A model generated the notes under the pieces. The model was not told where the DNA came from. It did not search any database and worked only from the letters and a program-made list of their open reading frames with translations. 64,000 bases of DNA, from assembly GCA_963708025.1 (NCBI GenBank), contig CAVPSB010000024.1, positions 1 through 64,000 on the forward strand, read 5' to 3'. Of the stretch, positions 1,626 through 15,039 are shown in pieces. Each line of letters opens with the position of its first letter. The first letter of the stretch is position 1. Source of the stretch: an uncultured Candidatus Rokubacteria bacterium. GTDB lineage: Bacteria; Methylomirabilota; Methylomirabilia; Rokubacteriales; DASRDR01. The position numbers were made by a program, and so were the translations under genes.

Positions 1626-1641
1626 AGCCGGATGAAATCCC

Positions 1642-1843
1642 CGCGCGAGGGTAGCGTTGAGGTCGCAAGGGCCGACCCCCCTCCCCCCGGCCAAAGGCCG
1701 AAGGCCGTCGACGAATGGGGAAGGGACGGGCGGGTGGACTCGGCCGTGATGCTATCGCCGCGCGTGGGTAGCGTCGAGGTCGCAAGGGCCGACCCCCCTC
1801 CCCCCGGCAGGTGGGGAGGGGACGGGGGTGGGGGGGGTCTCAG
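1642..1843. repeat. Two tandem ~48-bp GTAG-hairpin units plus C-rich/G-rich hairpin (dispersed family A)
   Basis: cgcgcg(a/t)gggtagcgt(t/c)gaggtcgcaagggccgacccccctccccccgg at ~1642 and ~1759; contains the CCAAAGGCCGAAGGCCGTC module; ends ...ggtctcag. Confidence 0.8.
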
Positions 1844-1847
1844 ATTG

Positions 1848-3809
1848 ATGGAATACCGGTACGCGCGCTGGGACGGGACGCGGGAGCCGTTCGCGCCGGG
1901 CGCGGACGCGCTGCTGGACCGGATCGCCGAGGACCTGTTCGAGCACGGCGACCTCATGCGCGCCCTCCGGGAGCTCTTCCGGGGCGGCCTGCGCGGGCCG
2001 GCCGGCCAGCGCATCCCGGGGCTCCGCGACCTGATGGAGCGGCTCCAGCAGCGCCGGAAGGAGCGCCTGGACCGCTACGACCTCGACAGCGTGATGACCG
2101 ACGTGCGCCGGCGCCTCGAGCGGATCGTCGGGCTGGAGCGCGACGCCGCCGATCGCGCCGCCGGCGATCCGGCGACCCGGGAGCGGGGCGAGGCCGCCCG
2201 GCGGACGCTCGACGCGCTGCCGAAGAGCCCGGGTGGGGCCATCAGGGCGCTGACCGGTCACGACTTCCTCGACCCCGAGGCCCAGCTCCTCTTCGAGGAG
2301 CTGCTCGACACGCTCCAGCGCCGCATGATCGGCAGCGTCGCCGAGGGGCTCGCCCAGTCGATGCGCGGCATGACGCCGGGCCAGCAGGACGGGCTGCGCG
2401 AGATGCTGCGCGAGCTGAACCGGATGCTCCGCGACCGCCTGGAGGGCCGGGAGCCCGACTTCCAGGGGTTCATGGAGCGGTTCGGCCCCATGTTCGGCCC
2501 CGACCCGCCTCGCGACCTGGACGAGCTGCTCGACCGGATGCAGCGGCAGATGGCCCAGATGCAGTCCCTCATGGACAGCATGTCGCCCGAGCAGCGCCGC
2601 CAGCTCATGCAGGCCCTCGAGCAGTCGCTCGACCCGGCGACGCTCGCCGAGATGGCCGAGCTGGGCGCGCTGATGCAGGCGCTGCGCCCGCCCTCGGATC
2701 TCGCCCGGGAGCACACCTTCGCCGGCGCCGAGCCGCTCACGCTCGACGCGGCGATGCGGGTCATGGGCGAGCTGCAGGACCTCGACGGGCTCGAGCAGGC
2801 CCTCCAGCAGGCGGCGCGCTCCGGCGACCTGGACCGGCTGGACCCCCAGCAGGTCGGCGACCGGCTCGGCCCCGAGGCCGAGCGGGCCGTCCGCGAGCTG
2901 CAGGAGATCGCGCGGAAGCTCGAGGAGCAGGGCCTCGCCCGCCGGGAGGGCGATCGCTGGGAGCTGACGCCGCGCACCATCCGGAAGCTCGGCGAGAAGG
3001 CCCTGGCCGAGGTCTTCGGCCGGCTGGGGCGCGGGCGCGTCGGGGGCCACCGGATCGCCCCGGCCGGCGCCGGCGGGGAGCCGACCGGCGACACCCGGCC
3101 CTACGAGCCCGGCGACCCGTTCGACCTGAACCTGCTGCGCTCGCTGATGAACGCGCTCGCCCGCGGCGGGCCCGGCACCCCGGTGCGCTTCGCGCTCGAG
3201 GACTTCGAGGTGGACCGGTTCGAGGCCACCATCTCGGCCGCCACCGTCCTGCTGCTCGACCAGTCGAGCTCGATGGTCCACTACGGCCGCTGGCCGTCGG
3301 CCAAGAAGGTGGCCATGGCGCTCCAGGCGCTCATCCAGGGCCAGTTCCCGCGCGACCGGCTCTTCCTCATCGGCTTCTCGGACTACGCCGGCGAGATCCG
3401 GACCCGCGACCTCCCCACCGCCCTGCCCAACATGTGGCAGCAGGGCACCAACATGCACCACGCCCTCATGCTCGCCCGGCGGCTCCTGTCGAAGGAGCGG
3501 GCCGGGACGCGCCAGATCATCATGGTGACCGACGGCGACCCGACCGCCCACCTCGAGGACGGCGAGTCCCAGTTCAGCTACCCGCCGTCGCGGCGGACGA
3601 TCCTGGCGACGCTGCGGGAGGTCAAGCGCTGCACCGCGGCCGGCATCAAGATCAACACCTTCATGCTCGACCGCTCGCCCTACCTGATGCAGTTCGTGGA
3701 CTACGTGACGCGGATCAACCGGGGGCGGGCCTTCTTCGCCGAGCCCGGCCGCCTCGGCGACTACGTCCTCATCGACTACGTCGCCAACCGCCGCCGCCGC
3801 GTGGGGTAG
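1848..3809 (+). CDS. VWA domain-containing protein (Rv0959-like), partner of the upstream AAA+ ATPase
   Basis: N-terminal YRYARWDG; MIDAS-like LLLDQSSSM, GTNMHHAL and IIMVTDGDP; ATG at 1848 preferred because the longer ORF start lies in repeat DNA. Confidence 0.85.
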   Translation: MEYRYARWDGTREPFAPGADALLDRIAEDLFEHGDLMRALRELFRGGLRGPAGQRIPGLRDLMERLQQRRKERLDRYDLDSVMTDVRRRLERIVGLERDAADRAAGDPATRERGEAARRTLDALPKSPGGAIRALTGHDFLDPEAQLLFEELLDTLQRRMIGSVAEGLAQSMRGMTPGQQDGLREMLRELNRMLRDRLEGREPDFQGFMERFGPMFGPDPPRDLDELLDRMQRQMAQMQSLMDSMSPEQRRQLMQALEQSLDPATLAEMAELGALMQALRPPSDLAREHTFAGAEPLTLDAAMRVMGELQDLDGLEQALQQAARSGDLDRLDPQQVGDRLGPEAERAVRELQEIARKLEEQGLARREGDRWELTPRTIRKLGEKALAEVFGRLGRGRVGGHRIAPAGAGGEPTGDTRPYEPGDPFDLNLLRSLMNALARGGPGTPVRFALEDFEVDRFEATISAATVLLLDQSSSMVHYGRWPSAKKVAMALQALIQGQFPRDRLFLIGFSDYAGEIRTRDLPTALPNMWQQGTNMHHALMLARRLLSKERAGTRQIIMVTDGDPTAHLEDGESQFSYPPSRRTILATLREVKRCTAAGIKINTFMLDRSPYLMQFVDYVTRINRGRAFFAEPGRLGDYVLIDYVANRRRRVG

Positions 3810-3902
3810 GCCGGGCATCTGCGACGAACGTCTCGACTTTCGACTATTGACTAGCCAAGGAGGCCAAACATGTCCTAGGCGACGGCTCTTCTCCAGATTT
3901 GT

Positions 3903-6321
3903 TCAGGCAGTAACGCTCTCTTCGATCTCAGTTGCGAGACGGTCAAAGTCGGGGAGTAACGCGAGAACGCCGCGCGCCGCCTCGCTGGTCGCCCGACGAC
4001 GCTGGACGTCGTCCATCGCCTTTTCGGGCTCGTCGCCGCCGTTCTCCTTCATCTGCCAGGTGGTGTGCTTCTTCGCGAGCGCTTCCTCGCGCACCCAGAG
4101 GTTCGCGATGGCGACACCGAGCGCGATCCCGTAGCGCTCCCGACGAATTTGCATCGCCTGGTCGCCGCTGAATGCGGAACCTTGCTTGTACGCTGCCCAC
4201 GGCGCGAAGTCCTCGTTCAGCACGATCGTTGCGACCTCCGTGTGCACATCCTTGAATTCGCCGTACAGGTCCGGGTTCATCTCAGCGAGTACCTTGCCAG
4301 CAAGTCGCTGTAGGTCGCCCGCGGTCTCTTCGGTCCACCCACTCGCACGCTGGTCCTCGACGCGGTTCCAGACAAGCGCGATCACGCTGCGCTTCTTCCC
4401 CTCGGCCTGCCCCGCGCCCTCCTTCGTCTTCGGCAGCCGTGGGGGCTGGGGCTCTGCCCTTTCCGCAAGGAAGGTGACGCTGAGGGGCCAGCGCAACTCA
4501 CTGACGCCGCCACTGGAGCGCAGCCAGGAGAGGACGAGGACGACGTGGTGAATTCCGAGCGCAGCCTCGTCGGCCGCGGAGATCCCGAGTTGTATGCGGC
4601 CACGGCGCAGGTCACCGACCGACAGACTGAGTTCGGCGTCGGCCGGCGTGTTGCGCAACTCGATCTGCCCGCGTGTGGGGATGAAGCCGTCGACCGCATT
4701 GATCGTCATGTAGAAGGCATGGCTCTCGCCGGGGAGGAAAGAAATGCCGACAGGTCCGGTGAAGCTCGTGGGCTCGGCGTAGAGGTCCTCGCGCGGCTTC
4801 GGCGGCTTCGGCCTCGGACTGCGTCCCTTCTTGTCGATGAGCACCTCGAGCGTCGGCACCTTCGCGGCGATCGCCCGGTTCAGCTTCTCGAGGAAGTTCT
4901 TCGTGATACGCTGCGCGGTTCGCTGTAGCGCCTCACGCGTGAGCCGCGTCTCAGCCTCTTCGAGGTCAGGGTCGTTCTCGAGCCAGCGGGCGATGGCCTC
5001 CTCGAGCCTTCGGGCCTCTGGGGTCTTCCGCAGCGCCTCGCGCATCGAGCTGAGCATCTGGATTCTCTGTTTGCGCGGTACCTCCTCGAGGTCAACCTCG
5101 ACAAAGATCCGCTCGGCGACCCGGCGACGGCTCGGCACGAGTGTCTGGAAGCGCTGCTGATCCCAGGCGTGGTGGACCTGGCCGTCGTGGGTGAGAACAG
5201 TGACATAACCGCGCGCAACGTAGGACCGACGGCGGTTGAGGTCACGGAAGAGCCACCAGCGCACGCGCATGGTCCCAATGCCGGGAACGGGCACAGAGGA
5301 GAACTCGCTCTTTCGAAGGAGCGGCGCGTGTTCGGCGTCGTCAGGACTCTTTCGATCTGATGGGGTTTCGAGGCGCTGCAGGCGCAGGCCCAGGCCGGAA
5401 AGGACGCTGACACCACGACCCTCAGGCCTGCGGTTTGCGGGTGGTGTGCGATTGTCGGCGAGACCGAATGGAAGCGTCGGCCTGAACAGCACCGTCTCGG
5501 CGTAGGCGTAGATACTGTCGTCCTGCTGCCACGTCTCCTGGCCCATGCGGTCGGCCTGGTAGCCGATGTGTGCCACGTATACGCCGGGCTCGAACTGGCT
5601 TGCCTCTTCCGCCGTGCACGCCCAGGGAAGGCCCTTCGGGTCCTCAGGGGTGTCGCAGACGAGGTAGCGGAAGAAGGGAAGCCGGTAGTCATCACTATCT
5701 TCGCACCGGACGACCGCAACCGTGACCTCGTCGATCTCGCCACGGGTGAGGAGTTCCGGCTGTTTGCGCATCACAAGGACGGTCGCCGCGCTGAACATGC
5801 ATGCGAGTGAACCGCCCTTCCCGTACACGCCATGCTGATACAGCTTTCGAAGCTTATTGCTCGCCTCGAGCGAGAGCAGCGTGTACGGCGACTCCGCCCG
5901 AGAGACGCCGATTCCGAAGTCCCGGAACGCGACAGTCGGACGCCGCTTCGAGTCGTCCGAGTCAAGGAGGATGACCAGTGCGAGCTTCCCAATTCGCTCG
6001 CGCTGGTCCGTTGTCATCTCGGCGAGACCTGCCTTCGGAATGTCGAAGAGCTTCCGCGCGGCCGCAGCGGGTGAGGTAAGCGCGGCGACGCTGGCGTGCT
6101 GCCGCTGCACCTCGAGCTCGATGAGCGCATCGAGTTCGTTCGTCGCGCGCTCGAAGAGGAGCCCCTTTGGGTCGGCGGCGCTTGACAGAGTCGAACCAGT
6201 TCGTCTCGCGGTCGCCGAGGAACCGGATGCGCCGGGCGCCGCCGCTTCTCAGCTCCCGCTCAAGTGCCTCCACGTCCGCGACCATTCTCGCGTTGAGCGC
6301 CATCTCGACCATCCGGTTCAT
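3903..6321 (-). CDS. Large GHKL-family ATPase (MORC/TopoVIB/MutL-like N-terminus, unknown C-terminus), ~805 aa, one frameshift near 6195
   Basis: Removing one T in AACTGGTTCGACT joins ORF 5962..6321 to 3903..6110, giving FERATNELDA (N box), FRDFGIG (G1) and HGVYGKGG (G2), then an S5-like segment (VLTHDGQVH...VEVD...MRE). Confidence 0.75.
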
Positions 6322-7376
6322 GTCGTCGCCTCCTCGACCTCACGCCGCCCGAGTTCGGTCAGCGCGTACCGCCCCTCACTCAGCTTCGGCTCCACTAGCC
6401 CCCACTCGCGCCCTCGGCTGATGTATCCCGCCACATTTGTCGAGGCCGCTGCTCCAGGCCACTCTGCGGCGAAGCGGCGCAATAGGCCCTGGCGCGTCGG
6501 CATCTCGACGAGCGTCCGGAGGATTCCGAGCCACGCCCCGTAGTCGTCGGGGAGCGTCGCTCGCAAGTGCCCGCGGAAGGCACGCCAAGCCTGATCGACG
6601 TGTGGTGGCCTCGCGACGAGCCCGACAGCGGCGAGGGAATTTAGCAGCTCGCTTCCCTTGTCGGTCGGCGCCACGACGTAGCCGGTGCTGGCCGGACCCG
6701 CCCCAGCAAGCTTCATCGCGAAAAGCGGCCCGATCGGCCCGCCCTCGCGATCGGGCATCCCGACCATGTGCTCGATGAAGCGAGCCTCCGACGATTGCCG
6801 CTTCTCCGCGTTCGTCGGAAATCCGATCGCCGCCTTCATCTCATCGGACGCGCGCTCCTCGTCGGCTGTCGCAAGCTGTGCGCCGATCTTCCACGCGGCT
6901 TCTAGTAGGTTCGATAGGAACTCGGGCCACGGGATCGGACCGCCACGGCTAGTCGCCATGCTGATCAAAGAGTGCGCGGCCCACAACGTAGGGTAGTCGC
7001 GATTGTGAAGGCCGTAGAGCATGCCGCCTGCGGAATGGGGTGGCAGGACAGGGACTCGGCCGCTGAACGATGTGATCGACTCGATGGCTATTGGCCGCTC
7101 GGCGTCCAGAGTACCGCCGCGGTTGGGCAAGACCCGCTCGTCGCTCTTCGCGCTCGAGCGAAGGAGGAGGACGGGAGCAGGCCCGCCGGCGGGACGGACG
7201 CGCTCGTCGGCGATCCGGTCCGCGATCGCCTCCCGGATGAAGTCGTCGCGCCCGTTGTAGGCGCCACCCGACTTAAGGATGGTCCCATCCATCTCCTTGA
7301 CGAGGGACGCTGGTAGCCATGTCTTCACGAGACGGAGCACCTGGTTGGGAGCGGCCGACCGCCGAGCCTTCGGCAT
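6318..7376 (-). CDS. Hypothetical DNA-binding protein with N-terminal ribbon-helix-helix and C-terminal winged-helix-like region
   Basis: LVKTWLPASLVKEMD...GRDDFIREAIADRI is CopG/Arc-like; YISRGREWGLV...YALTELG is wing-like; stop overlaps the ATPase start (ATGA 6318-6321). Confidence 0.65.
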   Translation of the reverse strand: MPKARRSAAPNQVLRLVKTWLPASLVKEMDGTILKSGGAYNGRDDFIREAIADRIADERVRPAGGPAPVLLLRSSAKSDERVLPNRGGTLDAERPIAIESITSFSGRVPVLPPHSAGGMLYGLHNRDYPTLWAAHSLISMATSRGGPIPWPEFLSNLLEAAWKIGAQLATADEERASDEMKAAIGFPTNAEKRQSSEARFIEHMVGMPDREGGPIGPLFAMKLAGAGPASTGYVVAPTDKGSELLNSLAAVGLVARPPHVDQAWRAFRGHLRATLPDDYGAWLGILRTLVEMPTRQGLLRRFAAEWPGAAASTNVAGYISRGREWGLVEPKLSEGRYALTELGRREVEEATT

Positions 7377-7380
7377 GGAA

Positions 7381-7412
7381 ACTATATTCGGTGATATCCT
7401 AGTTTTTGTCAA
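7381..7412 (-). promoter_or_regulatory. Possible sigma70-type promoter of the island operon
   Basis: AT-rich patch; TTGACA at 7407-7412 and TATAGT at 7381-7386 on the minus strand, but a non-canonical 20-nt spacer. Confidence 0.35.
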
Positions 7413-7478
7413 GTGTATTTAGACTGTTTATGTCGCTGGATCCTCGGCGGCAAGCCGGTGGCTGACCGCTCACGACCC

Positions 7479-7643
7479 CGGCGGCTCCTGGCCAAGGAGC
7501 CGGACCGGAACGCGTCAGATGACCATGGTGGCTAACGGCAACCCAAGCCCGAGCCGCGTCAACCTCGAATCTTCGCCCAGCCTGGGCGCCTTGGGGATTA
7601 CGTGCTGGTAGACTACATCGCCAGCTACCCTCGGGTGGGATAG
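7479..7643 (+). pseudogene. Degenerate duplicate of the 3' part of the VWA gene
   Basis: Translates as RRLLAKE/RTGTRQMTMVANGNP...SRVN/FAQPGRLGDYVLVDYIASYPRVG* versus VWA RRLLSKERAGTRQIIMVTDGDP...TRIN...FAEPGRLGDYVLIDYVANRRRRVG*. Confidence 0.85.
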
Positions 7644-7653
7644 GTCGCCCGGG

Positions 7654-8241
7654 TCAGCCGACGGCTTCGGCGTCCCACAGGCCCGGATAGCGGACGACGA
7701 ATCCCGCCGCGTTCACCTGGAGGTCGGCGACGAACCGGCCGCCGTCGCTCTCGTACCGGTAGGTCGTGACGTCGAGGCGGCGGTAGCGCTGGTCGAGCGG
7801 CTCCAGGGTGAGGCCCGGGAAGCCCAGCCAGGCGGCCCTCACCTCGGCTTCCTGCCCGACGGCCAGACCCAGCCGGCGGATCGCCAGCAGGTTGGTGGAC
7901 GGGCTGAAGCCCAGGTCGAGGTCAACGCAGCCCACCACTCCGGGGGACTCCGTGCCGTCGAGTCGCCAGCGGCGTCCCGCATCGACGGACAGGGCGATCT
8001 CGACGGTCTGGCTCCCGATCCAGCCGGTCACGCGTCCGGACACGGTGCGCCACCCGGAGTCGCCGACCACGCGGTACTCCAGCCGACACGGCCGGGCCTC
8101 GTGAGCGAAGACCGCCGTGCCGCTCAGGTGCCAGCCGTCGGGCCGCCGGGAGAGCCTGGCGGATTCGTGACCTGGCTGATCCAGCCGGCGCCAGAGGATC
8201 GGGTGGTCGGCCGGTGGCACCGTCTCGACGGCGCTCGTCAC
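7654..8241 (-). CDS. Putative glycolipid-binding domain protein (PA1994-like)
   Basis: ILWRRLD...GCVDLDLGFSPSTNLLAIRRL...QRYRRL...YPGLW family pattern. Confidence 0.8.
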   Translation of the reverse strand: MTSAVETVPPADHPILWRRLDQPGHESARLSRRPDGWHLSGTAVFAHEARPCRLEYRVVGDSGWRTVSGRVTGWIGSQTVEIALSVDAGRRWRLDGTESPGVVGCVDLDLGFSPSTNLLAIRRLGLAVGQEAEVRAAWLGFPGLTLEPLDQRYRRLDVTTYRYESDGGRFVADLQVNAAGFVVRYPGLWDAEAVG

Positions 8242-10659: not shown

Positions 10660-11613
10660 TCATGGCTTGAGCACCCGGACCGGCGCGCCGCGCAGGAACG
10701 CCTCGACGTCCTCGAGCGCCTGGCCGAAGAAGATCCGGTAGGTCTCCTCGGTCACGTAGCCCAGGTGCGGGGTGATCACCGTGTTCGGGAGCCGGCGGAG
10801 CGGGTGGTCGGGGGGCAGCGGCTCCTCGTCGAAGACGTCGAGCCCGGCGCCGGCGATGGTCCCGTCGCGAAGCGCGCCGACGAGGGCGGCCTCGTCCACG
10901 ATGGGGCCCCGGGAGGTGTTGACGAGGTACGCGCTCGGCTTCATCAGGGCCAGCTCGCGGGCGCCGATCAGCCCGCGGGTCCGCTCGCTCAGGACGAGGT
11001 GGATCGTCACGAGGTCCGCCCGCCCCAGGAGCTCGTCCCGGCCGACCAGGGTGGCGCCCACCTCGGCCGCGCGCTGGGCGGTGAGGTTCTGGCTCCACGC
11101 GATCACGTCCATCTCGAACGCGCGGCCGATCCGCGCCACCCGCGACCCGAGATTGCCGAGGCCGAGCACCCCGAGGGTCTTGCCGTTGAGCCCGAGCCCG
11201 ACGCTCTGCTGCCAGTGACCGGCCCGGGTCGCCCGGTCCTCGGCGGGGACGCGCCGGAACAGCGACAGGATCAGCGCCCACGTCAGCTCGGCCGTCGGGT
11301 ACGGGAGTCCGCCCGTCCCGCAGACGAGGATGCCGCGCTCGGCCGCGGCGGCCAGGTCGATGGCGGCGTTGCGCATCCCCGAGGTGACCAGGAGGCGGAG
11401 CCGGGGCAGGCGCTCCAGCAGGGCGCGCGGGAACGGCGTCCGCTCCCGCATGGCCATGACGATGTCGAACTCCGCCAGCCGGGCGGCGACCGCCCCGGGG
11501 TCCGCGAGGTGGTCGGGAAAGACGACGACGTCGGTCCCCGCCGGGAGCCGGCCCCAGTCGGCCATGCGAAGCGCCACGCCCTGGTAGTCGTCCAGGATCG
11601 CGACCCGGGTCAT
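10660..11613 (-). CDS. D-2-hydroxyacid dehydrogenase family protein
   Basis: GLGNLG, LVNTSRG, GLDVFDEEP, TPHLGY. Confidence 0.9.
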   Translation of the reverse strand: MTRVAILDDYQGVALRMADWGRLPAGTDVVVFPDHLADPGAVAARLAEFDIVMAMRERTPFPRALLERLPRLRLLVTSGMRNAAIDLAAAAERGILVCGTGGLPYPTAELTWALILSLFRRVPAEDRATRAGHWQQSVGLGLNGKTLGVLGLGNLGSRVARIGRAFEMDVIAWSQNLTAQRAAEVGATLVGRDELLGRADLVTIHLVLSERTRGLIGARELALMKPSAYLVNTSRGPIVDEAALVGALRDGTIAGAGLDVFDEEPLPPDHPLRRLPNTVITPHLGYVTEETYRIFFGQALEDVEAFLRGAPVRVLKP

Positions 11614-11672
11614 GGGCAGAGTCTAGCATCCCCTCCGGCCGGCGGGCGCTCGGGGAGTGATATCCTGCGCCC

Positions 11673-12623
11673 GTGAGCGCGCTGCCGGCCGCCTTCCTGG
11701 GCGCCCTGATGCAGGTGCTGAGCCTCGTCCAGGCCGGAATCCTGGCCGCGCTCTTCGCGCTGGCCCTCCGCGCCCTCGTGCTGCTCGCCGTCGATCGACG
11801 GCGCCCCCTGGCGGTGACGCTGCTCCGGGGCTGCGCGGTCGCCCTCTTCCTGGCCGCCGGGCTGGTCTACGCCTCGCTCAGCGCCTCCATGGTCGTCTGG
11901 GACGGCGCCGCGGTGGCGGTCGCGATCCTCGTGGCGCTCCTGGTGCTCTCCGGCGTCGCCGTCCGTCGCGCGATGGGATGGGCCGAGCGGAGGCCGGGCG
12001 CCGCTGGGCTCCTGGCCCAGCTCGTCCTGCTCCTGGTGCTCCTGCTGCTGGCGTCCCTGACGCTGATGCGCGCCGGCTTCCTCGCCCTCACCGGCGATCG
12101 CCCCGTGCTCCTCGTGGAGGTCACCGGCGAGACGGGCACCCGGACCGTGCGCTGGGCGCCGCCGGACCAGCCGGCGCGCGAGGAGCGACTGCGGACCCAC
12201 CGGGTCGTCTTCCGGACGCCGGAGGGCATCCCGGTGGCCGAGGCCTGGCTCTACGGCGACCAGGTCGGGGTCAAGGGGCGGGTGCTTCGGCTGTCACCAG
12301 TCCTGAACGCGGCCGGCGTTCCGAATCTCTTCGAGCTCTCCTTCGCCCACAACGGCTACACGACCGCGGAGCGGCACGCCACCCAGCCCCACCAGGCGGT
12401 GCCGCTCCCTCCCGGAGGCCCGCTCGCCGTGCCTCCGTGGTGGCGCGGGGTGCAGTCGTGGCTCCTCCAGCGCTGGGAGACGGGAACCGCCGCGGATTCG
12501 TCGTGGGCGGTGCGGTCGGCGACGATCGAGTCCACGTACTTCCCGCTGATCGATTCCGGCGGGCAGCCGGTCCGGGGGACCTTCCGGCTGGTGCTGACCC
12601 CGGGCGGTCTGTCCTCGGGCTGA
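11673..12623 (+). CDS. Hypothetical membrane protein (about 4 TM helices plus a soluble domain)
   Basis: Long ORF with host-like codon usage and hydrophobic N-terminal segments. Confidence 0.65.
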   Translation: MSALPAAFLGALMQVLSLVQAGILAALFALALRALVLLAVDRRRPLAVTLLRGCAVALFLAAGLVYASLSASMVVWDGAAVAVAILVALLVLSGVAVRRAMGWAERRPGAAGLLAQLVLLLVLLLLASLTLMRAGFLALTGDRPVLLVEVTGETGTRTVRWAPPDQPAREERLRTHRVVFRTPEGIPVAEAWLYGDQVGVKGRVLRLSPVLNAAGVPNLFELSFAHNGYTTAERHATQPHQAVPLPPGGPLAVPPWWRGVQSWLLQRWETGTAADSSWAVRSATIESTYFPLIDSGGQPVRGTFRLVLTPGGLSSG

Positions 12624-12719
12624 CATCGGTACCTCCCCCCCCCCCCCCCCCAACCCCCCCTCCCCCACCCACCGGGGGAGGGGGGAGTTGGAGGCACCGA
12701 TTGCTTCACGCGTCCTCAG
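12624..12719. repeat. Family A C-rich/G-rich hairpin repeat
   Basis: acctccc...cccctcccccacccaccgggggagggggga...ttcacgcgtcctcag between convergent stop codons. Confidence 0.8.
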
Positions 12720-14097
12720 TTCCCCCACATCTTCTGCCACCACTTGCGCTCGTCCACCTTGGGCGCGCCCGGCCCCAGGTTCATCTTCTTGCGGATGTCG
12801 TCGATGCCCCAGCCGGTGAGCGCGGCGAGCGTCTGCGCCTCCTTCTCCCGCCGCTGCGAGAGCTGGTCGCGGTACTGCCGAGCCTCGACGCAGTCGTCGC
12901 TTCCCGTCCAGGGGTGCCGCAGGACGTACCGGCCCTGGAAGTTCGCGCGGTCGGCCGTCTCCTGGAAGACGAGGTCGTCCGGGAAGTGCTCGGCGTCGTA
13001 GCGGAGGTGGAGCCGGGTGACGAAGACCGCCTGGGCGGCCGGGCCCCCCCGCGGCGGAACGGGCATGCGCCCCGGCCCGGGGAGGACTCCCGATCCCGGC
13101 GCCGCCTCGTCCACCCAGAAGACGCCCAGCTCGCGCAGCTCCTCGGTCGACAGCGGGTCGGCGGCGCACGGGTCGCACCACGCCATGTCCCACGCGTACT
13201 CGAGGAACACCGCCCGCATGTCCTCCTTCTGCACCTGCTCGGCGAACATGGCCTTGTAGAAGCGCCCGAACTCCTCCTTCACGTAGACGCGGCAGGTCCA
13301 TGCCGGTGGGGAGCCTCACCGTCCGGTAGTTCGTCGTCTCGACGCGGCCCTTGCGGGTGAGCGCGAAGACGAACAGCTCCTGCGGGCCGTCGGCGTTCAC
13401 CGTGCCCAGCCGGATCGGCAGCATGAACTTGGGCGACTCGTAGGCCATCTGGAGCGGGCGCAGGTAGGTGAAGCCGAGCTTCGCCTGCTCCTTCAGGTTC
13501 ACCTTGGCGACGAAGAACTTCATGTTCTGCTTGATGTAGCTGCCGAGGACCGCGGTCGCCCCCGCCGGGATGCGGTAGCCGTTCTCGCGGAGCCAGGTCT
13601 CGAGCCCGCTGCTCTGCGTGGCGGACAGGATCAGGATGTCGTACTCGCCGACCGTGTACTGGGCCTCGATCGTGACCCCGAGGCTGTCGGCGCTCCGCGG
13701 GCCGGCTGGCGACGCAGCCTGGTCCGCGGCGCCCCGGGCCGCCGCCATTGGCAGCCGGCGCTCGCACGGGTTGTCGTCGAAGTACTCGACGAGCCGCGGC
13801 GCGGAGTAGGCGTCGAGGTGCTCGATCAGCGCGCGCTCGCCCACGCGGATCTGCCCCTTCTCGAGCACGGTCGGCACCGGGATGACGATCGCGAACTCCT
13901 TCGGGTCGCCCCGGAAGTCGTTGGCCATGGTGAGGACGGTGTGGTCCTCGTCGCGCACGAGCACGACCTGCGAGGCCTGGTTGAAGAGCTTGGTGTCGGC
14001 CTTGGCGACGTAGAAGCCGCAGAAGGCGAGGGCGGCCCGCCGCCGACAGCGCGGCGGCGACGAGGATGGCCCCGGCGACGAGGCGCTTCGGGTTCAT
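12716..14097 (-). CDS. DUF2330 domain-containing secreted protein; frameshifts near 14035 and 13290
   Basis: Signal peptide, AFCGFYVAKAD, YSAPRLVEYFD, FMLPIRLG, FVTRLHLRY, NFQGRY spread over three frames. Confidence 0.85.
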
Positions 14098-15039
14098 GGC
14101 GCGTGTCTCCTTTCCCCGGGCGGCCGGCGCCGCCACTCGTAGCGCGCGCCCGGCAGCAGCCGGTCGATCAGCGGGACCGCGAGCGAGCAGAGCGGCGAGC
14201 GACCACAGGAGCCCGTTGGTCCGGAACAGCCGGAACTGGACGCACCCACGCCCCGGCGGCCACCAGGACGGCGAAGAGGATGCGGCCGGCCCGCGAGTCG
14301 GGCGTCGTCCGCGGGTCCGAGATCATGAAGAACGTGAAGAGCAGGAGGGCGCCGTTCTGGAGCCGGTGGAGCGGGATCGCCAGCGGGTCGCCCGAGCCAC
14401 CAGCGACCGGCCGAGGACCAGGGCGGCGTAGAAGCCGAGGAAGGCGTAGGTCACGTCGCTGCGCGCGGCCCGGTTCACGACCAGCCCGCCCAGGCACAGG
14501 CGATCAGGAAGCCGAAGAAGGCGACGCTGCCCCACTGGCCCGGCGAGACCCAGACCTGCGCCGGTGAGCAGCATCATGGCCACGAGCGCGAAGTTCGTGG
14601 GGTTGAAGACGTGCTTGCCGCGGACGCGGATGACGAACTTGCTCCGCGATCGCCACGACCGCGGTCAGCGACCGCGAGCGAGGAGGACGTTCGTGCGCAG
14701 CAGCAGGCAGAGCGAGAGGCCCGAGATGAGCGCGCTCCGGGGATCGAAGCGGGGGACGGCGCCGAGTCGCGCGCCGGCGTACTGGGTGACCAGCACGGTC
14801 AGCAGCATCGCCGCCGCCTGGATCCCCTGGACCTCCAGGTCGAGCCGCATGACCCCGAAGACGAGGAGGCCGGCGAGCGAGGCGATCTGGTAGAGGCGCG
14901 GGTCCCGGACCTCGGCGGCCGCCGCGAGTCGGACGACGCGGCGCCAGGTCCCCGCCGAAGGCCGAGGGACCGCCGCCGTCCCCGCATGGGACCGGACCGG
15001 CTGGGTCGCGACGTCGGCGACGGGAGGCGGCGGCGTCAT
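14094..15039 (-). CDS. RnfD/NqrB-like membrane protein (stand-alone); multiple frameshifts
   Basis: DPRLYQIA, SALISGLSLCLLLRTN, KHVFNPTNF, FFMISDPRTTP; ATGA overlap with the DUF2330 gene. Confidence 0.75.

Follow-up and report, generated by a model that had tools for sequence, protein, structure and literature searches.

The 64,000-nt stretch of DNA analyzed here (hereafter, the window) comes from contig CAVPSB010000024.1 of the assembly GCA_963708025.1, representing an uncultured Candidatus Rokubacteria bacterium. At positions 3903 to 7376 it carries two coupled minus-strand genes, designated A and B. Gene A encodes a protein with ribbon-helix-helix (RHH) and winged-helix domains, and gene B, split by a single extra base, encodes a predicted GHL-class ATPase. 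In the original prediction, made from the sequence of the window, this pair was described as a candidate for a new, self-contained two-gene system. Analysis of related loci does not support this self-sufficiency, since a DNA methyltransferase is the conserved third partner of A and B and is absent here. The islet of about 4 kb was acquired horizontally and is probably an incomplete version of a module of the restriction-modification (R-M) type that has three parts and is linked to a methyltransferase. Where the module is complete, it consists of a type II-like N6-adenine DNA methyltransferase, A, and a B protein of about 800 residues, with a XamI-type endonuclease in about one-third of the loci. 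Instead of a two-gene system, the pair is most likely the remnant of an undescribed methylase-linked, R-M-like module with three parts. Since no cognate methyltransferase is encoded on the contig and B is interrupted, the window copy is probably inactive, being either in decay or disarmed after the loss of the methylase.

The search for related loci was repeated with an alignment as a query, since a single-protein query had returned no relatives, and 30 loci were collected from genome and metagenome contigs. In 26 of them, an A homologue immediately preceded B, so the neighborhood survey proposed in the original prediction confirmed the conservation of the pair. The four loci without A were two contigs starting inside B, one locus with a broken B (L008), and one fragment (L031). 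Genes for N6-adenine methyltransferases were found within about 4 kb of the pair in 24 of the 30 loci, and the six loci without such a gene were contigs of no more than 3872 nt. The linked enzymes belonged to the N6_Mtase/Eco57I type and possessed an M_Eco57I_C domain, and their genes were convergent or divergent to A-B. About 18 of the methylase-linked loci were distinct once apparent duplicates had been removed (L019 and L020 equal to L004, L022 equal to L001, and L029, L025, and L027 close or equal to L009, L015, and L030, respectively). The absence of a methylase partner, as stated in the original prediction, is therefore true of the window and misleading for the family. A XamI-type endonuclease (PF09572, E-values of 6e-28 to 7e-17 for the three proteins scanned) was encoded beside the methylase in eight loci, six of them distinct, and none was recognized in the remaining loci or in the window. 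Clustering of the open reading frames (ORFs) of 31 sequences, comprising the 30 loci and the window, revealed no further gene common to three or more distinct organisms. L008, in which B is broken and A is missing, retained both the methylase and the XamI-type gene.

Linkage to a methyltransferase extends to more distant members of the B family. Eight distant B homologues were found in two other genome samples, five in the phylum of the window and three in an actinobacterial class, and a methyltransferase of the PF01555 family was encoded within 2 kb of B in all eight. The gene directly upstream of B encoded an A-like protein in two of these loci, DndB in one, a protein combining SeqA_N and Mrr_N domains in one, and a sigma-70-like protein in one, while in two others the methylase itself occupied this position, and in the last B had an N-terminal extension. 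Thus, around a constant B both the adaptor family and the methylase family have been replaced non-orthologously. Genes other than A in the upstream slot were located at 4004-5149 in L054, 5685-6857 in L062, 7096-7755 in L060, and 10544-11365 in L059; DndB was found in this role twice, once on a Rhodococcus plasmid. Altogether, a methyltransferase adjoined eight of nine distant B homologues, the exception being this plasmid. In L059 (contig C2 of genome G624), a PF01555 methylase followed by a 622-residue HATPase_c_3 protein (11298-14157) adjoined the B homologue, so that two methylase-GHKL modules are arranged in tandem.

Of 15 close loci, 7 had domains typical of mobile or defense genes (integrase, RHH/PIN, HNH, WYL, GmrSD_N, NYN/DndB, and PD-(D/E)XK) in the vicinity of the module, in a scan that took in 93 of 113 candidate ORFs, and the neighbors in the distant loci included McrBC, AbiEi/AbiEii, and Fic. 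As anticipated in the original prediction, the pair matched no named defense model: PADLOC-DB v2.0.0 gave no matches for A and B, for any of 61 B-family members, or for three distant B proteins. At the related loci only the methylases, the XamI-type enzymes, and DndB matched PADLOC, each to generic models, with the linked methylases matching type II models best.

No methylase gene was detected by tblastn over all 64 kb of the window, and the genome as a whole gave no match to two linked-methylase queries or to Pfam Eco57I. Other methylase families were present in this genome on other contigs only. One region of contig C10 (12315-13228) matched Pfam N6_Mtase in three pieces located in different open frames and may be a fragmented methylase gene.

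The A-B pair is foreign to this lineage, since none of 40 relatives carries it, the GC content at third codon positions (GC3) is below that of the flanks, and a duplicated gene end brackets the islet. GC content is about 65% at 3500-7700 and 72%–77% in the flanks, while GC3 is 0.79 for A and 0.80 for B against 0.90–1.00 for the neighboring genes. The unusual codon usage and the foreign island seen in the original prediction are thereby substantiated. Of 251 genomes of the phylum, 6 contained a match to B, this one included, and the other five were only distant homologues; in an actinobacterial class, at least 4 of 401 genomes contained a match. The nearest B sequences were metagenomic (79% identity), while the named hosts of more distant copies were Solirubrobacterales, Kribbella, Nocardioides, and a Chloroflexota metagenome-assembled genome (MAG).

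On the left, the islet is bordered by a 33-nt direct repeat (3475-3507, plus strand) lying inside the 3′ end of a live VWA-domain gene (1632-3809). The right copy of the repeat (7477-7509) is 85% identical and 4002 nt apart, and it opens a decayed duplicate of the VWA 3′ end (7477-7643, plus strand). Three-frame translation against the VWA C-terminus allowed us to recognize this duplicate, which is frame-broken and internally deleted, in the pieces RRLLAKE, GTRQMTMVANGNPS, and PGRLGDYVLVDYIASYPRVG, the last followed by a stop codon. The repeat and the duplicated end point to an insertion into the end of the VWA gene or to recombination there; either copy of this end may have arrived with the islet. 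Neither a tRNA gene in the window nor an integrase gene on the islet was seen. In the loci of nine relatives, no copy of the right-hand neighbor of the islet (7654-8241) was detected within 1.5 kb of the VWA gene, so that no empty site was shown. At the opposite end of the VWA gene, a short dispersed repeat with the core ...GGGTAGCGTCGAGGTCGCAAGGGCCGACCCCCCTCCCCCCGG... is present twice in tandem (1632-1850, plus strand); it has 51 matches over the contigs of the genome, the query region included. The mechanically defined VWA ORF of 725 residues extends through both copies, and since the proteins of relatives align only from about residue 72, the gene probably begins at the ATG around 1849-1851.

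The two genes overlap by ATGA at 6321-6318, A preceding B, in agreement with the coupling described in the original prediction. Gene A (6318-7376, minus strand) is intact and encodes 352 residues from the ATG at 7376 to a stop codon ending at 6318. Gene B (3903-6321, minus strand) begins with the ATG at 6321 within the overlap and ends with the stop codon at 3903. Upstream of A lies an AT-rich patch of 69 nt (7377-7445, minus strand) with 38% GC and an exact TTGACA, which is a possible promoter or operator. The patch previously taken for a promoter is therefore real in composition, but a scan of 3600-7800 for consensus promoters and terminators returned no sites. A nearly identical relative of this region in the soil-metagenome run X1, compared over 7402-7577, contained many small indels in the non-coding part at 7435-7525, while its coding parts showed only substitutions.

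The residue numbering and the structure model of B refer to P0005, an intact homologue with 79% identity, and not to the broken gene of the window. The AlphaFold model of P0005 had a mean predicted local distance difference test (pLDDT) score of 93.2 and a predicted template modeling score of 0.90. It consists of an ATPase module with a Bergerat (GHKL) fold and an S5-like transducer (4926-6212, minus strand), a helical segment, an Ig-like beta-sandwich (P0005 residues 514-618; 4467-4781, minus strand), and a C-terminal alpha/beta region with a long helical hairpin (3906-4466, minus strand), the last assigned from the secondary structure of the model and having no structural or family match. 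The layout inferred earlier from sequence, with G1 and G2 boxes, an S5-like region, a helical and a beta-rich segment, and an unmatched C-terminus, is thus present in the model. The N box ERATNELDA (6152-6126), the G1 box DFGIG (5921-5907), and the G2 box GVYGKGG (5831-5811) are all located within the main B frame of the window. In 109 aligned homologues, E57, N61, and D64 of the N box, D134, G136, and G138 of G1, and K156, G164, and G169 of G2 were invariant, as were P284, G309, G379, R426, P516, and G573. Nearly all of these residues fall in the ATPase half, only P516 and G573 lying beyond residue 430. No histidine was found among the invariant columns, and the nearly invariant positions near the end of the S5 domain were G379/Q380 and R426.

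Foldseek matched the P0005 model to Hsp90, TRAP1, GRP94, GyrB, ParE, MutL, and SMCHD1 with E-values of 2e-10 to 1e-8 and a probability of 1.00. For residues 37-465, the VIA-align Z-scores were 15.7 for GRP94, 15.4 for TRAP1, 13.5 for SMCHD1, 13.2 for MORC3, 13.0 for MutL, 12.4 for MORC2, and 12.2 for TopoVI-B, and the alignments with GRP94, TRAP1, MORC3, MutL, and TopoVI-B extended from residue 37 to about 465, covering the middle or transducer domains. Together with the motifs and the matches of 11 of 61 distant family members to Pfam HATPase_c_3 (best E-value 1.8e-7), these similarities of the modeled structure assign B to the GHL-class ATPases, with a GHKL domain and an S5-like transducer, and confirm the GHKL ATPase proposed in the original prediction. 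Its more specific attribution to a MORC/TopoVI-B-like type is not warranted: both families do match structurally, but MORC, MutL, SMCHD1, and TopoVI-B score 2–3.5 Z units below the Hsp90 paralogues. TopoVI-B was the sole family reached by the B profile among PDB sequences, in the G1-G2 region and with an E-value of 0.015. The Ig-like region (VIA-align Z-scores of 8–9.1) resembled an Ig-like domain of a sialidase and S-layer domains over about 90 aligned residues with a root mean square deviation (rmsd) of 2.5–2.8. VIA-align on the full-length model gave no structural match for P0005 residues 620-806, and a protein atlas search with the C-terminal 307 residues of B returned only unnamed clusters.

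Searches of Pfam, PADLOC, and NCBIfam with A and both pieces of B gave no match besides one chance NCBIfam row (E-value 0.13); likewise, neither the window B protein nor P0005 matched any Pfam family, HATPase_c_3 included. Pfam nuclease domains and DUF4263 were absent from the 61 B-family members. A word-indexed search yielded 88 B homologues, all annotated as hypothetical, and an exhaustive search of clusters at 50% identity yielded 644 at E-values of up to 1e-3, 341 at up to 1e-10, and 87 at up to 1e-30. Longer fused forms of B (1412–4030 residues) were sought and not found, which is weak evidence, and B was not found in a phage collection.

The one-nucleotide frameshift noticed in the original prediction is real in the assembly. 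The first frame of B (6196-6321, minus strand) encodes the N-terminal part of the ATPase (residues 1-42, MNRM...ETNW) and reads MNRMVEMALNAR...GDRETNW through the TGG at 6198-6196. Past one extra T, the second frame (3903-6194, minus strand), with 763 codons and a stop, reads STLSSAADPKGLLFERATNELDA... and is open throughout as far as the stop at 3903. The break (6194-6195, minus strand) is a TT in place of the single T required by intact homologues (AAC TGG TCG, encoding N W S), and it involves no long homopolymer. Intact homologues of 776–806 residues continue in a single frame through this point (...GDRELNWSTLSNAADPK..., also quoted as ...NWSTLSNAADPK...), and the match of the B-family profile to the genome likewise breaks at 6194/6196. 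The long ORF has its first usable start only downstream of the N box, and the called protein P0004 (704 residues, starting with MTTDQRERIG) lacks this box, so the motif emerges only after repair of the frameshift, as had been claimed. Programmed frameshifting was considered and rejected, since AAC TGG TTC G offers no slippery sequence and every homologue is single-frame.

Logan contigs from four soil runs were aligned to this region. A contig of 186 nt from run X1 (6052-6238, 3 mismatches) had one letter fewer at 6194, which restores the frame, and therefore an intact, nearly identical allele exists in nature; at this position the intact form accounted for 2.6 of the 4.6 depth. Among the sequencing runs listed, none contained half or more of the sampled words of the stretch, the best share being 0.23, and the runs listed as matching it included none of RNA. 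Split or truncated B genes were also seen in L007 (about 8840), L008 (8001-10046), and L052 (7169-7190); long-read MAGs are the source of some of these breaks, which may be errors of assembly.

Protein A has 84 homologues, and its structure model had a pLDDT of 87.3. An RHH domain occupies residues 15-59 (7200-7334, minus strand), where the model shows helices 23-35 and 43-59 after an extended segment. All nine matches of the A profile to PDB were RHH proteins or domains, over profile positions of about 9-87; the E-values were weak, namely 0.012–0.023 for NikR, 0.031 for the EndoAI antitoxin, 0.38 for E. coli NikR, and 0.72 for HicB3. No Pfam RHH match was obtained in 53 A-family members, and five homologues are named Arc/MetJ-type RHH in the source annotation. 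The consistency of these weak matches agrees with the N-terminal RHH domain of the original prediction.

Residues 60-110 of A are disordered, and this linker leads to two winged helices spanning residues of about 115-352 (about 115-255 and 262-352; 6321-7034, minus strand), with the invariant motifs GLHNRDYP..W and R.REWG. A winged helix had also been foreseen, and the analysis found two. The C-terminal winged helix-turn-helix (262-352) aligned with PadR, MarR, Hel308, and others at VIA-align Z-scores of 8–9.7 and rmsd of 1.8–3, and both winged helices were covered by an alignment with the FokI recognition domain (Z-score 9.2, 185 residues aligned over 115-352, rmsd 4.4). Foldseek gave nothing at E-values of up to 1e-3 for the A model, with weak rows for ScpB, MukE, and AlkX/YcaQ. 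The putative recognition helix of A is invariant, and so is a polar cluster formed by H124, R126, D127, N189, and E197. Prediction of a complex between A and residues 256-781 of B, performed without controls, gave scores of 0.00 and 0.29, the mark being 0.32, which is no evidence either way.

A complete module could work as follows. The methylase would mark the DNA of its own host. Protein A, dimerized via its RHH domain, would autoregulate the operon and tether B to DNA, a task that DndB or another partner might perform elsewhere. B would dimerize on ATP, as other GHL ATPases do, and act on unmarked incoming DNA, either by clamping or compacting it directly or by licensing a nuclease, such as the XamI-type enzyme where it is present. 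Since no nuclease is recognizable in A or B and most loci encode none, the effector step may be clamping or compaction, as in MORC. In type III R-M and BREX systems, an adenine methylase is the basis for telling self from non-self, the remaining components are ATPases that have no sequence specificity of their own, and BREX has no evident nuclease. To judge from the changes of methylase subtype around B and the invariant recognition helix of A, specificity may likewise come from the methylase in the module described here, or A-B may read methylation independently of the motif. The likeness to type III R-M and BREX would be a functional analogy, and no homologues of the Res helicase, PglZ, BrxC, or BrxL were found. 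In the window, a missing methylase combined with an interrupted B is consistent, as a single case, with the disarmament of a harmful restriction component.

Several observations weigh against an R-M-type remnant. The function of the module is inferred, and how DNA would be restricted is not evident from A and B: no nuclease domain was recognized in either, and no D, E, or K is invariant past residue 430 of B in the 109 sequences. The DndB-B pair on the Rhodococcus plasmid has no N6/N4 methylase detectable by tblastn, and its nearest methylase, 4.6 kb away, is of the C5 type and belongs to an NgoMIV-type R-M system. The subtype of the methylase changes at least six times on a B tree of 16 loci (mean of 8.1 after shuffling), and a count equally low arose in 11 of 200 shuffles. 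Like the invariant recognition helix of A, this is awkward for classical R-M systems, in which restriction and modification must share one specificity. The sister B proteins of L006 and L015 (support of 100/100) are linked to different methylase subtypes, and A-B pairs that are stable in other respects seem to have swapped methylases. No defense or mobile domain was found nearby in 8 of the 15 close loci, and these counts were taken without controls. Methylases encoded on other contigs of this genome could in principle protect in trans. Finally, the break in B is either a very recent mutation or an assembly error, since A is intact and nothing else interrupts B over 763 codons, and the soil contig with 3 mismatches over 186 nt holds an intact form.

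A bolder reading dispenses with the nuclease. The B family, an RHH-winged-helix or DndB-type tether, and a methylase would together constitute a nuclease-free, methylation-gated immunity, in which a dimeric, Hsp90/MORC-like ATPase clamps unmethylated incoming DNA and silences or stalls it; such a module would be a prokaryotic counterpart of MORC-type silencing and not of restriction cleavage. In a variant, the polar cluster of A would form the catalytic center of a new winged-helix enzyme that cuts DNA or excises bases and is regulated by B. This reading and its variant, taken as one, are speculative, and we consider them rather doubtful. The cryptic effector suggested in the original prediction for the C-terminal part of one partner was not borne out, since, judged by conservation, no catalytic-looking residues mark either protein.

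An active, self-sufficient two-gene system, which would make the frameshift an error of assembly or consensus and reduce the methylase to an optional neighbor, is unlikely, although part of the evidence agrees with it. A is intact, B has no other defect over its 763 codons, and the soil contig lacks the extra base; the assembly appears to be of the metagenome type, with 49 contigs and 8% contamination; the DndB-B pair of the Rhodococcus plasmid manages without an adjacent N6/N4 methylase, and methylase subtypes are shuffled relative to B. On the other hand, a methyltransferase adjoins B in all 24 related loci with enough flank and in eight of the nine distant ones, the extra base is located in a TT dinucleotide with no long homopolymer, and in run X1 the intact form makes up only 2.6 of the 4.6 depth at the site.

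Still less probable is a role other than immunity, namely a methyl-directed unit of DNA transactions or epigenetic control in which B, as a MutL-like matchmaker, and A, as a reader of the methylation state, would act with the methylase in repair, replication control, or silencing. SeqA_N and Mrr_N families belong to proteins that read methylated DNA, and one of the partners found in place of A joins these two domains. The modeled structure of B resembles MutL and MORC (Z-scores of 13.0–13.2), most loci have no recognized nuclease, and recruitment to repair is raised for some paraMORCs by Iyer et al. (2008, PMC2292703). However, a selfish or defense element fits better than a housekeeping one in view of the sporadic distribution (about 1%–2% of genomes, and none of the 40 relatives), the low-GC3 islet here and the plasmid location elsewhere, the neighboring McrBC, AbiE, GmrSD, and integrase genes, and the repeated breakage of B (the window, L007, L008, and L052).

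MORC-type ATPases compact DNA, and RHH proteins are the centromere binders of some plasmid partition systems. A partition or compaction cassette of a mobile element, with A as the centromere binder, B as the motor, and one homologue on a plasmid, is nevertheless highly improbable, since nearly all loci are chromosomal with variable surroundings, no conserved replication or transfer genes lie nearby, the constant partner is a DNA methylase, which partition does not need, and no centromere-like repeat array was seen in 3400-8000.

An incomplete copy of an R-M-type module thus remains the preferred interpretation of the islet. For this genome alone its significance is modest, since what is left is a disarmed, orphaned remnant on an inserted islet. 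The B family itself is sizeable (the 644 clusters), has no Pfam, NCBIfam, or PADLOC model for its 800 residues apart from the distant members reaching HATPase_c_3, and is almost always tied to a DNA methylase and a DNA-binding adaptor, with a nuclease recognizable in a minority of loci. GHL ATPases such as MORC, SMCHD1, Tiamat, and Shedu type I-D are emerging as immune and silencing machinery shared by bacteria and eukaryotes, and their action on DNA is poorly understood. If the module is defensive, it would be a compact three-gene system with a directly testable effector step, and complete copies are available in cultured Kribbella and Nocardioides isolates. No description of a triad of methylase, A, and B was found in open-access papers or in bioRxiv.

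Among known proteins, the Hsp90 family (GRP94, TRAP1, and HtpG) is the best structural match of the B model, with about 300 residues aligned; the model shares with it the layout of ATPase and middle domains, and B may share the dimeric GHL mechanism. B differs in its low identity (11%–15%), the lack of a Pfam match to Hsp90, the Ig-like C-terminal half, and a genomic context of DNA methylation and not proteostasis. TopoVI-B was reached by the profile (E-value 0.015) and by structural alignment (Z-score 12.2), the latter below Hsp90, MORC, and MutL; no Top6A or TOPRIM partner was noticed in the window or in the scanned neighboring ORFs, although no TOPRIM-targeted search of the window was made.

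Among defense systems, VcSduA (Shedu type I-D, or paraMORC3; PMC12137116) and Tiamat (bioRxiv 10.64898/2026.09.30.754977) are GHKL/GHL ATPases that have been shown to act against phages, and Tiamat genes are reported to adjoin genes for methyltransferases and helicases. Each has a PD-(D/E)xK nuclease at its C-terminus, accompanied in Tiamat by DUF3684, whereas neither domain was recognized in B; the Shedu models of PADLOC likewise gave no match among the 61 B-family members.

Iyer et al. (2008, PMC2292703) described MORC and paraMORC ATPases with GHKL and S5 domains, which are encoded alongside methylases in R-M operons. Compared with the signatures given there for paraMORC2 to paraMORC5, B shows neither the strongly conserved ExxxH in the C-terminal part of the S5 domain that marks paraMORC2, nor the C-terminal restriction-endonuclease-fold domain with E-D-ExK (DUF4263) of paraMORC3/Shedu type I-D, nor the TIR domain of paraMORC4 or the HxH of paraMORC5. 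The window B protein and its close relatives also do not reach Pfam HATPase_c_3, one mark of MORC proper, which 11 of 61 distant family members do match. In that work, about 70% of MORC operons include a superfamily II helicase, which was not found near A-B loci; their methylases are mostly of the cytosine type, in contrast to the adenine or N6/N4 type at A-B and B loci, and the fixed partner with RHH and winged-helix domains sets A-B apart. In the features set out in the same account, the MORC/paraMORC1-5 ATPases of R-M operons are nevertheless the closest described kind, and the B family is akin to them in its N-terminal GHKL domain with intact ATP motifs, its S5-like domain and family-specific C-terminal extension, its sporadic, laterally mobile spread, and its association with adjacent DNA methylases and sometimes with type II endonucleases.

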